From a virus: DNA of 29,274 nucleotides. Below are positions 3,755 to 19,319 of this stretch, in pieces. The position numbers were made by a program, and so were the translations under genes. The stretch's first letter is position 1. The number at the start of each line of letters is the position of its first letter. The notes beneath the pieces are model-generated. The model had not been told where the DNA came from and ran no database searches. It worked only from the letters and a program-made list of their open reading frames with translations. The stretch lies in the IMG/VR virus record IMGVR_UViG_3300033990_000324; one strand, given 5' to 3'.

Positions 3755-4295
3755 CGATTTCATGGTGATTTCGCTCGCCCTCGCAGCCGCAGCCATGCTC
3801 GGCATAGCTATACTGTCGCGCGACAATGCCGGTCTCGGCTCTGCGTGGAAGGTATTGGTGGTGTTCGCGTTCGCGTTCCTGCTCGCCGCCTCGTTCTATG
3901 CCCTGTCGCTGCCAGCGTCGTCGGCGCTGACGGTCAACGGCATCAACGCAGGATACATCAACGCCACCGACTACTACAACCTCCCGACCACGACCATACC
4001 TGCCGCGTCGCTGATACCGGCCAACATAGTCAGCAACACGATATACCAGAACCCGAACTCTACGCGCACGCTGCTCATATACTCGGTAACCAAGTCGGCA
4101 CCGCTGTCAGCATGGCTCGGGAGCAGCGCGAACACGCTGACCGAGGTGGTCGACAACACCGGCGGGTCAGTGACGGTATCGGCGACAGTGTACTCACTCG
4201 CAGGATACAACATGACCGCGCTCGTCGTCGTGCCGCCTTCTTGGTACTACAAGTACAACTACACGACTGCGCAGTTCTACTACGAGAGGTCATAA
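3741..4295 (+). CDS. Membrane-anchored protein with predicted external beta-rich domain
   Basis: Two N-terminal TM helices; Thr/Ser/Tyr-rich domain with sequons NAT, NST, NMT and NYT. Confidence 0.75.
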   Translation: MAAPDDFMVISLALAAAAMLGIAILSRDNAGLGSAWKVLVVFAFAFLLAASFYALSLPASSALTVNGINAGYINATDYYNLPTTTIPAASLIPANIVSNTIYQNPNSTRTLLIYSVTKSAPLSAWLGSSANTLTEVVDNTGGSVTVSATVYSLAGYNMTALVVVPPSWYYKYNYTTAQFYYERS

Positions 4296-10850: not shown

Positions 10851-11318
10851 CTATTTTATGAACGTGACGGCTATTATTATGACCGACAGCACGAGCGTAG
10901 CTGCGGGCAGGTACTGGAACAGCTGCATTATGACCGGATACTGCGCAGCCACGGTGCCGAACGACGACGCGCCGATTATGCTATAGAACGCGTCATGCAG
11001 TATGAACGAGAAGAACACTTCTATGGGCAGTATCACGAGCGCTGGGACTATGAACACCGGACTGCTGTCAGCGAACGCCGCAGCCACTGCTGACGCGACT
11101 GCTCCGATCAGGAACAGTATCACCACCGCGTTGTTCAATATGCTTATCGACGTGCCTGCGTTCTTGTACGCGAGTTGGCCCTGCGGCGTGGCGTTGAACA
11201 GCTGACGTGACGTGGGGTTGCTGCCGAACGCCGTCCAGATGCTGTCCACTGCGAACAGCGCCACTATGACGATGAACAGCATGGCGAGGAGGAATATGAT
11301 GTCGACCTGCCCCTTCAT
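10851..11318 (-). CDS. Pilin-like hydrophobic virion protein with class III signal peptide (MKG/Q)
   Basis: MKGQVDIIFLLAMLFIVIVALFAV fits the archaeal [KR]G/Q prepilin motif; three further hydrophobic helices; sequon NAT. Confidence 0.65.
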   Translation of the reverse strand: MKGQVDIIFLLAMLFIVIVALFAVDSIWTAFGSNPTSRQLFNATPQGQLAYKNAGTSISILNNAVVILFLIGAVASAVAAAFADSSPVFIVPALVILPIEVFFSFILHDAFYSIIGASSFGTVAAQYPVIMQLFQYLPAATLVLSVIIIAVTFIK

Positions 11319-16383: not shown

Positions 16384-16707
16384 TCAGAACCTCTCTCCTT
16401 CGCCCCTACCCCTGAATGCGAAGGCCAACAGCACTATCCCGATTAGTATCGCTGCAACGATGACGAGGGCTATGAGCGGCAGGTATGACATTATGGTGTT
16501 CACACCCCTGAGGCCGTAGCCCGTCGCGTTGTACGCGATGCTGTTCGGTGTTATGCTGCTGCTGCTCTGGAAGTTCTGCAGTATCAGTGCGCCGACCGCA
16601 CCGACTATGGCGATCAGGACGAACGCCACGACCGCTGGCAGCAGGTCTTCCAACCCTGCGGCGACCCTTCTCTTCTGCAGCTGCTTCTGCAGCTGTATCT
16701 GCTTCAT
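16384..16707 (-). CDS. Major capsid protein, spindle-shaped virus type (two hydrophobic helices, basic propeptide)
   Basis: Start moved to ATG 16707 (AGTGATAGG upstream, own TATA box); MKQIQLQKQLQKRRVAAG-LEDLLPAVVAFVLIAIVGAVGALIL-loop with NAT-IMSYLPLIALVIVAAILIGIVLLAF; same architecture as SSV1 VP1 and the His1 MCP. Confidence 0.8.
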   Translation of the reverse strand: MKQIQLQKQLQKRRVAAGLEDLLPAVVAFVLIAIVGAVGALILQNFQSSSSITPNSIAYNATGYGLRGVNTIMSYLPLIALVIVAAILIGIVLLAFAFRGRGEGERF

Positions 16708-16792: not shown

Positions 16793-17245
16793 TCATGCCA
16801 GCGCGAGCAGCAACAACGACGACAGCAGCAACGATGCAGCGTAATACGCGAGGGCTGGGAACTTCGACGGATAATCCCTTTGCCGGTGCAGGGCATGCGC
16901 ATCCACTGCAGCAGCTACCGACACCACGAACTGCATCAGCACCAGCCCCACTATCCCGGGTATCGGCGCGGTCAGCAGCACCAGCAATATCGCCGCGCGG
17001 TCGGCAGGCGCGTACAGCTTGCGCAGCACCGGCAGCGCGACGGCGAACACCGCGCCGCCCACCACGACGGACAGCAGCGTGATTGCGGGAGACAGCACCA
17101 GCAGCGCCACGAGGACGGCAGACATGATGGACAGGGACAGCAGCAGGATTGAGGTCGAGACCGACAGGTGCTTCCAGTCGTCGACCGCGCACGGCAGCAG
17201 CGCGGCGACGTCGAGCAGCGATACGATTATGTATGTCGTTACCAT
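16793..17245 (-). CDS. Putative prepilin/class III signal peptidase (A24, FlaK/PibD-like GxGD aspartic protease)
   Basis: Multi-TM; Asp23 at the end of TM1 in AVDDWKHLSV (cf. xxxDLKxRxV); Asp82 in YAPADRAAILL (cf. GGAD/GGGD); spacing 59 aa versus FlaK D18-D79; C-terminal FPALAYYAASLLL resembles the PFxPxxxxG tail. Confidence 0.65.
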   Translation of the reverse strand: MVTTYIIVSLLDVAALLPCAVDDWKHLSVSTSILLLSLSIMSAVLVALLVLSPAITLLSVVVGGAVFAVALPVLRKLYAPADRAAILLVLLTAPIPGIVGLVLMQFVVSVAAAVDAHALHRQRDYPSKFPALAYYAASLLLSSLLLLALA

Positions 17246-17246
17246 C

Positions 17247-17384
17247 TCAACGCCTGCGTGCCGCGCGGCGCTGCATGCGTTCGCGCACAGTACCCCGATA
17301 ATGCGCGTGGCACGACGTACACAGACCTACAGTACCGTCGGTGTAGACCGCACACTTGCCGCAGATGCAGCAGCGCGTCACCAT
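17247..17384 (-). CDS. Small zinc-finger protein, 45 aa (not in the ORF track)
   Basis: MVTRCCICGKCAVYTDGTVGLCTSCHAHYRGTVRERMQRRAARRR with a CxxC..CxxC pattern. Confidence 0.6.
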   Translation of the reverse strand: MVTRCCICGKCAVYTDGTVGLCTSCHAHYRGTVRERMQRRAARRR

Positions 17385-17524
17385 AGGACACCACCGCCCA
17401 ATCCCAGTATCACAAGGAATACCACCGCATCGGCGACCAGTATCAATGCGGTCAGCTCCATCGCGGTCGGCGCCGGCTTCGTTTCTGCGAACGGTTCGTA
17501 TATCTCTTTTGTTTCGTCGGTCAT
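17378..17524 (-). CDS. Small C-terminally anchored membrane protein, 48 aa
   Basis: MTDETKEIYEPFAETKPAPTAMELTALILVADAVVFLVILGLGGGVLW; ATGA overlap with the upstream gene. Confidence 0.6.
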   Translation of the reverse strand: MTDETKEIYEPFAETKPAPTAMELTALILVADAVVFLVILGLGGGVLW

Positions 17525-19188
17525 GTTATCATCGTGAGGTTGACATGGTATATTGTTATGCCGTTCTGCGAGTACACCTGCGTGATGCCGCGCATGTCGG
17601 TGTTGCCGTCGATTCCAGTGAGCGCTGCTATGTTGGTGTTCGCGGTTGGCGGCGGCGAGCAGGAACCCGATAAGCTGTCGGCTGCGTCGGGTTGCGTGCG
17701 CCAAGATGGGGGCACGACTATATAATCGATATGCATCGTACGCAGCAGCGTGAGATTGCCTGCGGCGGAAAACAGGAACCGCGTCAGGTTGGCAACCCTC
17801 GCGTAGCTCGTCGAGTTGGAAAAGTTGACGTAGATGCTGCGGTCCGACCAGTATCTGAGGTATGGTCCTGTGTTGATGCCTGTCAGCACCGTCGAGTTCG
17901 TTGGCGAGTTGTTGGCGAGCCACAGCGACGCGGCCTCGAACTGTACGGTCGCATAGTCGGGTCGCGGCATGGTCGGCAGCATCAGCACGTCGGTAGCTGC
18001 GACCACGATGACGCCGGCGACCATGACGGCGCGCAGGTATTTCGGCGCGTATCCATATCCTGCTGCAGCTATCGCCGACAGGGGCAGGTACGCGAACACG
18101 AGCCATCGCGTATCGGCCGCAATCAGCGGCAGGGACACGAGCACCATCACGCCGAGCGCGAGCAGCGTCCATGACCGAGAACCTGTACCGGCACGATGGC
18201 GGAACAGCACGACGATGGTCGGCAGCGAGAACATGGCGAACCCGACCTCGGCGAGCAGCAGCCATGACGGATTGCCGCTGGACATGAACGACTGGTACAG
18301 GAACGTATAGCCGTCGTAGTAGTCGAATGTGGCGAGGCCGGCGGCGGCCGCGACCCATTGGGACGGGGAGTATGTCCATGCGTTTATCTGGCACAGCAGC
18401 GGGTTTGCGAGATTCACTGGGGTCGGCAGGAACTGCGAAGCGTAAGCCGCGAACAGCTGCACCGGTCCGGTCGAGGCGTAGTATAGCTGCATGGGCGTGA
18501 CGACCAACGAGAAGAATAACCATGCGACGAACACTACGGCGGACATCACTGCGAGGGATTTGGATGCACTGTGCAACACCCATGCCAACGCGAGCGAGAC
18601 CACTACTGCAACAGACAGCAGCAGCACGAACGGACCGCCCGACCATACCAACGCCCCGAACAGCGCCGACAACGATGCGAGGACAACCCATAACAGTTTA
18701 TGGGTATCGACGAACCGCAACGTGGAGTATGCGAACGCGAACGCGGCCACTGCTGCGAACGTGTCGCCGGTGAAGTTGACGTATGATTCCGCCCATATAG
18801 CTATCTCGCCGACAGCCCAGCATGCGACCGCGAACAGCACGGCGGGCTTCGAGTCTGTGAGGCGGGAGGCGAGCTTATATACCAGCGCGAAGGCGAGCAG
18901 GTCGAAGGCGAGCTTGAGCATCGTTATCGCGCCCTGCAAGCCGAGCCAGCGCGACAGCGGATAGACGGCGAGCAGCAGCCACACCTGCCCCATCTCGCCG
19001 TAGTTCTGCGGCGCGTGCCCAGCTACGGTCTGCTGCAGCGCGGTCAGCGTGGCTATGTTTATGCCGTTGTCGTCGTTGCCGACGAACGGCTGCTGCATGG
19101 ATTGGAACCCGCGCAGCGCGAGGCCAAGCATCAGTATAGACAGTATCGCTACCAGCCACAGGACGCGCACAGCATCACGTTGGTTCAT
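17521..19188 (-). CDS. AglB/STT3-like GT-C glycosyltransferase (oligosaccharyltransferase-like) with degenerate WWDYG
   Basis: Start moved to ATG 19188; about 12 TM segments; EL1 GNDD (cf. AglB GNDP); DTRW (cf. the conserved Arg in RF); C-terminal WLANNSPTNSTVLTGINTGPYLRYWSDR and LRTMHIDYIVV match the STT3 C-terminal domain layout. Confidence 0.7.
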   Translation of the reverse strand: MNQRDAVRVLWLVAILSILMLGLALRGFQSMQQPFVGNDDNGINIATLTALQQTVAGHAPQNYGEMGQVWLLLAVYPLSRWLGLQGAITMLKLAFDLLAFALVYKLASRLTDSKPAVLFAVACWAVGEIAIWAESYVNFTGDTFAAVAAFAFAYSTLRFVDTHKLLWVVLASLSALFGALVWSGGPFVLLLSVAVVVSLALAWVLHSASKSLAVMSAVVFVAWLFFSLVVTPMQLYYASTGPVQLFAAYASQFLPTPVNLANPLLCQINAWTYSPSQWVAAAAGLATFDYYDGYTFLYQSFMSSGNPSWLLLAEVGFAMFSLPTIVVLFRHRAGTGSRSWTLLALGVMVLVSLPLIAADTRWLVFAYLPLSAIAAAGYGYAPKYLRAVMVAGVIVVAATDVLMLPTMPRPDYATVQFEAASLWLANNSPTNSTVLTGINTGPYLRYWSDRSIYVNFSNSTSYARVANLTRFLFSAAGNLTLLRTMHIDYIVVPPSWRTQPDAADSLSGSCSPPPTANTNIAALTGIDGNTDMRGITQVYSQNGITIYHVNLTMIT

Positions 19189-19319
19189 GCATCCATGCAG
19201 TCGTCTTCGGTCAGCGCGGTGAACGAGTACCGCACCTTGCCGCACTTTCTGCAGCGGTAGTACGGCACGCCGTCGTCATCCGCCTCGCGCATGATGTCGT
19301 GGGTTATGTCAGTCGTCAT
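19185..19319 (-). CDS. Small CxxC zinc-finger-like protein, 44 aa
   Basis: MTTDITHDIMREADDDGVPYYRCRKCGKVRYSFTALTEDDCMDA; ATGA overlaps at both ends. Confidence 0.6.
   Translation of the reverse strand: MTTDITHDIMREADDDGVPYYRCRKCGKVRYSFTALTEDDCMDA

Follow-up and report, generated by a model that had tools for sequence, protein, structure and literature searches.

A minimal peptidase A24-like protein encoded directly ahead of a putative coat gene in a probably Micrarchaeota-associated virus group

The 150-aa gene and its surroundings

We analysed a 29,274-nucleotide stretch of viral DNA (IMG/VR record IMGVR_UViG_3300033990_000324; hereafter the window), in which a string of minus-strand genes encodes, in order, a 574-aa multi-pass membrane protein, a 48-aa membrane protein, a 45-aa Cys-rich product, a 150-aa protein and a 107-aa protein, followed by a 75-aa protein, a 1592-aa Ser/Thr-rich giant protein, a 155-aa protein and an 1143-aa protein. 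The features considered here are listed below, with an arrow marking the putative cut in a leader.

17521-19245, minus strand: multi-pass membrane protein of unknown family, 574 aa, upstream in the same gene string
17247-17384, minus strand: Cys-rich ORF, 45 aa, CCxC...CxxC with a basic tail
16793-17245, minus strand: A24-like protease gene, 150 aa, six helices, very hydrophobic membrane protein
16384-16707, minus strand: putative major capsid protein and candidate substrate, 107 aa, two-helix hairpin
10851-11318, minus strand: pilin-like protein and second candidate substrate, 155 aa, class III signal MKG↓QVDIIFLL

The ORF of the 150-aa protein is real. Its GC content by codon position (0.68/0.42/0.82) is typical of coding DNA and the same as that of the adjacent genes. 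In strain L001, whose DNA is about 97.5% (96-98%) identical, the ORF shows seven nucleotide differences: four are synonymous and at third positions, and the other three fall in two codons, yielding the conservative replacements G100A and L145V. A Ser/Thr-rich ORF of 172 aa on the plus strand (17019-17537), antisense to the protease gene, was rejected as a gene and is considered a shadow frame, since the third codon position is shared, its GC2 is abnormal and it spans three minus-strand gene junctions.

The 45-aa Cys-rich ORF, which stops two bases ahead of the start codon of the protease gene, is identical in L001, where the gene caller left it uncalled, and absent upstream of the other eight members of the protease family described below. 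The 574-aa protein matched nothing in Pfam, PHROG or NCBIfam, and a homologue search returned only one copy, 97% identical. In related contigs the slot upstream of the protease is occupied by a PMT_2 (GT-C) glycosyltransferase gene in L006 (L006:4322-5461, E 1.4e-11) and in one further contig, by a GT1 enzyme in L009-L011 and by sugar epimerases in L089.

A first-pass annotation of the DNA had singled out two aspartates, D23 (in AVDDWKHLSV) and D82 (in YAPAD), as mirroring the spacing of D18 and D79 in FlaK. The ORF translation and the sequence bear this out: D22 and D23 lie within AVDDWKHLSV, with the D23 codon at 17177-17179, D82 lies within YAPADR, with its codon at 17000-17002, and the spacing of 59 residues is close to that of the FlaK pair. 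The absence of the soluble insertion of FlaK, also proposed there, was confirmed, in that helix 5 is joined to helix 6 by a 12-residue loop only. At the site of this loop, cellular A24 enzymes of Micrarchaeota carry about 120 extra residues, and the soluble domain of FlaK is four-stranded (PMC4985597).

Family conservation and relation to peptidase A24

Searches that started from the 150-aa protein itself were uninformative. A word-indexed search of 5.8 billion proteins recovered near-identical copies only and an exhaustive phmmer search of 1.8 billion representatives found no divergent relative, the matches from both amounting to one 99% identical copy and one fragment; tblastn against phages and comparisons with Pfam, PHROGs, NCBIfam and PDB sequences gave no match. 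Relatives were identified by synteny instead, using contigs with homologues of the neighbouring 107-aa protein and inspecting the genes upstream of these. This yielded eight divergent positional homologues, encoded by 132-149-aa membrane-protein genes (including one on contig L013), which are 17-30% identical to the window protein and each lie directly upstream of a coat-like gene. Iterated HMM searches linked them to the window protein, with E-values from 1e-12 in round one to 1e-15 or 1e-16 for the last two members.

In the alignment of these nine distinct sequences, the only invariant residues are M1, D23 and D82. The earlier proposal had named loss of the two aspartates among homologues as one possible refutation, a test that it passes in 9/9 members. 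Judged from the alignment, the D23/D82 pattern is beyond chance, since these are the sole invariant residues besides M1 among nine homologues at 17-30% identity; D22, which is not conserved in the family, was rejected as a catalytic residue. Motif 1 reads A-aromatic-x-D-aromatic/hydrophobic-K/R-x-x-x-I/V. Motif 2 reduces to x-x-x-D and takes the forms APAD, QPID, SPLD, ALAD, ASAD, SRLD, KKAD and VKTD, so that GxGD or GxHyD occurs in none of the nine members: the residue at -3 (A, Q, S, K or V) is never Gly, and that at -1 is A, I, L or T. The replacement of the GxGD glycines, first noticed in the single sequence APAD, is thus a family-wide trait, with both glycines gone in all nine proteins. 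Also common in the family are a Pro about 12 residues past D82 and a (Y)(Y/F)P(A)L motif ahead of the last helix, with P-A-L itself seen by eye in five of the nine members shortly ahead of that helix. Lys and Arg are concentrated in loops 1, 3 and 5 (64, against 3 elsewhere), and this clustering indicates an N-out, C-out topology with both aspartates at the cytoplasmic face. The two aspartates of FlaK likewise lie at the cytoplasmic membrane face (PMC4985597).

AlphaFold2 (AF2) gave an uninformative model from the window sequence alone (pLDDT 57). From the nine viral sequences only, without templates, it predicted six helices with a pLDDT of 89.4 and a pTM of 0.82. By the helix boundaries of this model, D23 is found where helix 1 ends on the cytoplasmic side, and D82 falls at the beginning of the central helix 4, which is short (residues 80-92). 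An exhaustive structural alignment against 48,161 PDB chains ranked FlaK (3S0X_B) first, with Z 10.8, an rmsd of 3.5 Å and 138 of 150 residues aligned; it was the only chain with Z of at least 8, the runner-up reaching 5.9. Foldseek against the PDB also placed 3S0X_B first (TM 0.60, probability 0.85, E 1.3), no other chain exceeding TM 0.37. A shape search of the ESM Atlas returned clusters of 145-aa proteins, 92-100% of them PF01478, at TM 0.68-0.72, and 18 of the 30 nearest clusters in an ESM language-model feature search belonged to the PF01478 set. Presenilin and signal peptide peptidase (SPP) structures compared poorly with the model (SPPL2a, TM 0.20; PSEN1, Z 4.9 on 55 residues). The predicted fold therefore matches FlaK (3S0X) and short Peptidase_A24 models, in keeping with the initial description of a minimal FlaK-like protein.

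Among the viral models in BFVD, only two unnamed proteins (A5Y2D8 and A0A5Q2W8A6; 138 and 141 aa) had the same fold, at TM 0.56-0.60. ORF138 of Pyrococcus abyssi virus 1 (PAV1; L092:10909-11325), annotated only as a membrane protein, shows by eye D23, D78 and, ahead of its last helix, a VPLSP motif. HMM and hhalign comparisons of ORF138 with the viral family gave no significant similarity.

At the level of sequence, the relation to A24 is weak. The window protein had no match to PF01478, Arc_PepC or other libraries even at E 10. PF01478 was nevertheless alone among Pfam families in matching several members (three of nine, 12-18 bits, best E 0.04), none of the nine reaching its curated threshold of 26.5 bits. 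In a six-frame search of genomes, the L013 member reached 18 bits across positions 2-94 of the 104-position profile, and some Micrarchaeota ORFs of about 290 aa, the size of cellular enzymes, scored only 16-25 bits. Aligned by hhalign with 32 cellular A24 enzymes of Micrarchaeota (none from genome G032), the viral family gave a probability of 45% (51% for the trimmed core), E 2e-4 and a score of 32-33 over 78 columns, with D23 and D82 in register with the catalytic aspartates of the host enzymes; 22 controls, two reversed and 20 column-shuffled, scored 8.7-15.2. After removal of the insertion from the host enzymes, the match still fell short of the C-terminal helix. A search of 401 Micrarchaeota genomes with the viral-family profile gave only matches of 15-20 bits and no host A24 enzyme at E <0.01; on inspection, these matches resembled unrelated membrane proteins and not A24 peptidases.

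Such uniformly sub-threshold sequence statistics, together with the failure of an HMM search to recover FlaK from PDB sequences, would suit an unrelated six-helix membrane protein (for an envelope, transport or lysis) in which the aspartates and the FlaK-like packing are convergent or reflect modelling bias. The Z of 10.8 also falls in the range that the comparison tool warns may arise for helical bundles, where values near 10 can be unspecific. We regard this reading as very unlikely: three independent structure libraries indicate A24 and nothing else, hhalign registers both aspartates at scores far above the controls, and the topology places both on the cytoplasmic face. Going by the models, the 150-aa protein adopts the A24 fold, and its candidate catalytic Asp pair is correctly placed along the sequence, meeting the A24 criterion of two conserved aspartates, after TM1 and at the start of a short TM4, at the cytoplasmic face. 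It fails two formal criteria of the family, the Pfam threshold and the GxGD motif. The criteria for presenilin/SPP (A22) are not met either, as the protein has six helices and no match to PF04258 or PF06550.

Intact SPP/presenilin-type (A22) genes are present in relatives (L009:4696-5508, L088:3662-4537 and L090:3596-4456; also L010 and L011), immediately upstream of the A24-like gene. They encode 270-291-aa proteins with intact (F/Y/W)D, G(A/L)GD and PAL motifs and a Pfam SPP match at E 2e-9. These relatives would accordingly have two different intramembrane aspartyl proteases in tandem ahead of the coat gene, and in three of them the SPP-type protease could be the processing enzyme instead. 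The separate SPP-type protease of relatives, the loss of both glycines across the family and the lack of any sequence library that calls the 150-aa protein a peptidase at threshold speak for a reading in which the protein is a catalytically dead A24 fold that binds the coat leader without cutting it, as a membrane chaperone, insertase helper or scaffold for the very hydrophobic coat protein. An inactive chaperone had been offered from the start as the alternative. An HMM built from the SPP-type relatives, however, found no match in the window, and no SPP gene was present in the available DNA of L006, L008, L089 or L091. Moreover, a pseudo-enzyme is unlikely to keep precisely the two catalytic aspartates at 17-30% identity. 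Owing to this selective retention we consider an inactive chaperone less likely, indeed improbable, although it is not excluded. The 150-aa protein is probably an active, divergent A24-fold protease; cleavage has not been shown.

Candidate substrates, element type and interpretation

In each relative with available upstream DNA, the coat-like gene follows immediately on the A24-like gene. The 107-aa window protein has 63 homologues at 49-97% identity. An alignment of 41 of them shows an N-terminal stretch of 10-45 residues, variable in length as well as sequence, and conservation that begins with (K/R)RR-x-A-A-G, in which the Gly is nearly invariant, continuing into L-(E/Q)-D-L-L-P-A-V-V and a hydrophobic helix. 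In the window protein, the leader comprises residues 1-18 (16654-16707) and is basic and variable, ending in the conserved RRxAAG; helix 1 is followed by a loop with an N-x-T sequon and then by a second membrane helix. The putative cleavage site, RRxAAG↓L-E/Q-D-LLP, is non-canonical in having Ala at -2 in place of the usual K/R. Charged N-termini of just this kind are what A24 enzymes cut away, sparing the hydrophobic helix (PMC4858521).

The nearest named ESM clusters to the 107-aa protein are VP1_VP3 (0.84) and His1_capsid (0.81), which are leads only; none of 41 coat-like members matched Pfam, PF06281 (VP1_VP3) and PF25665 (His1_capsid) included. Its designation as a coat protein is putative and rests on weak language-model leads and on architecture, which fits the hydrophobic two-helix hairpin of about 80-130 aa expected of spindle-virus major capsid proteins. 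A complex prediction for the protease with coat residues 1-60 scored 0.00 and, having no controls, speaks neither for nor against an interaction. Scans of IMG/VR gave no match, whether started from the coat protein, from its alignment or from the prim-pol. JGI metagenomes contain distant coat-like genes, at 26-44% identity, as tandem paralogues (L018:3654-3965 and 4001-4294; L039:845-1111 and 1110-1466), and these keep D-(L/M)-L-P ahead of the first helix. On 27 JGI contigs with distant coat-like genes, the family HMM detected no adjoining A24-family gene.

The second candidate substrate is the pilin-like 155-aa protein, whose gene lies about 5 kb from the protease gene, past the gene for the giant protein. 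Its N-terminal pattern, MK(G/A)↓Q(A/V)D, is kept in homologous genes located after the giant protein in five related contigs. Because the pilin-like and coat-like proteins share (G/A)↓x-x-D (Asp at +3) followed by hydrophobic residues, one enzyme could serve both. It is also conceivable that an active A24-like peptidase has real substrates other than the coat, namely this viral class III protein (10851-11318), host pilins or archaellins, or both, with roles such as building a viral fibre or remodelling or blocking host surface filaments. The fold and aspartate evidence is the same for this reading as for one that includes the coat, the leaders of the 155-aa protein and its relatives are of the textbook class III type (K/R at -2, G/A at -1, Q at +1), and the Ala at -2 of the coat-like protein fits less well. 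Yet the invariant tight adjacency is with the coat-like gene and not with the more distant pilin-like gene; in addition, the hosts already have an A24 enzyme of their own that can deal with canonical leaders. Restriction to non-coat substrates thus remains a minor possibility. The host enzyme also counts against our preferred explanation below, as it leaves no obvious need for a viral copy.

Coat-like homologues occur in three Candidatus Micrarchaeota MAGs and also beside archaeal housekeeping genes on a 45-kb contig, which makes Micrarchaeota the likely hosts. The coat-like genes L005:6001-6348 and L014:6001-6177 lie on archaeal MAG contigs of 45 kb and 165 kb, the 165-kb one labelled Candidatus Micrarchaeota, and adjoin genes for ProRS, an AlaX-like protein, geranylgeranyl reductase and an RNA polymerase subunit, which suggests that they are integrated copies. 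A 2026 survey reported 0 proviruses in 1356 Micrarchaeota genomes (PMC13573593).

Besides the genes above, the window encodes a prim-pol/helicase, a serine resolvase, HNH nucleases and a weak tyrosine-recombinase match. The resolvase, helicase and HNH genes would fit any mobile element, and Pfam identifies no capsid family. One rival reading takes the element for a plasmid or an integrative element that has a pilus-like apparatus, the gene pair then encoding a prepilin peptidase and an unusual pilin; prepilin peptidases and pilins are indeed carried by archaeal integrative-conjugative elements (PMC6563490). We give it very little credence. No VirB4, TraG, PilB/FlaI-type ATPase or TadC-like platform was detected, and the coat-like protein, as a two-helix hairpin ending in a C-terminal membrane helix, does not resemble pilins. 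The 489-aa ATPase of the window, on the other hand, weakly matches AAA and a DnaA-like AAA+ PHROG, and the combination of a hairpin coat protein with an AAA+ ATPase is the hallmark of spindle-shaped viruses (bioRxiv 10.1101/2025.02.15.638363). The virus group is probably Micrarchaeota-associated and spindle-type, with the virion type inferred.

Our preferred explanation, to which we assign a probability of roughly 0.58, is that the 150-aa protein is a minimal, highly divergent homologue of the A24 (type IV prepilin/class III signal) peptidases of the FlaK/PibD/TadV type, with neither a soluble nor a methyltransferase domain, that acts as a leader peptidase maturing the coat and is paired with the coat gene. 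The gene, its family conservation and its synteny are observed, as are the fold and topology at the level of prediction and the substrate-like motifs; catalysis, substrates, exact cut site and virion type are inferred. Under this explanation the coat precursor would insert in the membrane with its basic leader in the cytoplasm, and the protease, with two aspartates at the cytoplasmic face, would cleave this leader off at the conserved Gly or beside it (RRxAAG↓L-E/Q-D), so that the remaining protein starts with a hydrophobic helix and can enter virion assembly. Cleavage of the pilin-like protein (MK(G/A)↓Q-x-D) would probably follow the same scheme. The first-pass annotation had also suggested that a reshaped active site could suit a non-canonical substrate. 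The first half of that suggestion stands, APAD-like forms having replaced GxGD throughout the family, while the second depends on a catalysis that is undemonstrated.

Spindle-shaped viruses are the most widespread archaea-specific viruses. Given the position of the gene directly ahead of the coat-protein gene, the A24-like protein may represent the type of coat-maturing enzyme used by spindle-type viruses, and the conserved pair of A24-like protease and coat genes suggests that coat maturation borrows the pilin-processing mechanism. We found no description in the literature of a virus-encoded A24-like peptidase beside a spindle-type coat gene. A more far-reaching proposal, which we advance only tentatively and at less than even odds, is that a GxGD-less clade of the A24 fold was recruited by archaeal spindle-type viruses as a dedicated capsid-maturation protease that cuts a pilin-like leader off a hairpin coat protein. 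If true, it would establish a mechanistic link between virion assembly and type IV pilin biogenesis and would name the class of enzyme responsible for the unexplained N-terminal processing of coat proteins such as SSV1 VP1 in spindle viruses. PAV1 ORF138 is a possible structural counterpart in other viruses of this kind. According to the models, the A24 fold tolerates loss of both GxGD glycines while both aspartates are kept, which bears on how active sites are constructed in GxGD proteases, presenilin included. The findings also add to the very sparse knowledge of Micrarchaeota viruses.

Comparison with known systems

In SSV1 (Fuselloviridae), VP1 is synthesised in a precursor form whose N-terminal extension is poorly conserved, with a conserved patch immediately ahead of the cut; the protease responsible was unidentified as of 2017 (PMC5748691). 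By analogy, the coat-like protein of the window has a poorly conserved N-terminal extension followed by a conserved patch before its putative cut. SSV1 encodes no recognisable protease, its mature VP1 begins with Glu, and no sequence link between VP1 and the 107-aa protein has been demonstrated. The viral gene pair, an A24-like protease followed by a coat with a pilin-style leader, nonetheless offers a directly testable candidate for coat cleavage of the SSV1 type.

Presenilin and SPP (A22) resemble the viral family in being of the intramembrane aspartyl type, although activity is only inferred for the viral protein, and in type II-oriented helices; the viral P-A-L recalls the presenilin PAL motif. 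A22 enzymes have nine helices with YD, GxGD and PAL motifs, whereas the 150-aa protein has six helices and is FlaK-like rather than presenilin/SPP-like. Short bacterial A24 enzymes (TadV/CpaA, about 140-170 aa, no methyltransferase domain) are closer in size and architecture. They differ from the viral protein in retaining GxGD, passing the Pfam model and acting in tad/cpa pilus loci. The substrates of TadV, the Flp prepilins, have long variable leaders that end in Gly.

The cellular A24 enzymes of Micrarchaeota (about 290 aa; contigs L042-L044 and L058-L087) share with the viral family motif 1 (A-aromatic-x-D-hydrophobic-basic...V/I), a motif 2 Asp with a conserved Pro about 12 residues on, and a Pro motif before the last helix. 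They differ from it by a G-x-(G/A)-D motif and by additional elements, namely two helices and a soluble domain rich in charges.

The preflagellin peptidase FlaK of Methanococcus maripaludis (3S0X, MEROPS A24B) and the archaeal PibD/EppA resemble the viral protein in its predicted six-helix core and short central helix 4. FlaK and the viral protein further agree in having one Asp after helix 1 and one at the start of helix 4, at the cytoplasmic face, and FlaK-type substrates resemble the viral candidates in a basic leader and a Gly followed by a hydrophobic helix. Unlike FlaK, the viral protein has APAD in place of GxGD/GxHyD, lacks the four-strand soluble domain and shows similarity below every curated threshold. 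FlaK-type genes are located in archaellum or pilus loci, whereas the viral gene adjoins a coat-like gene in a virus-like element.
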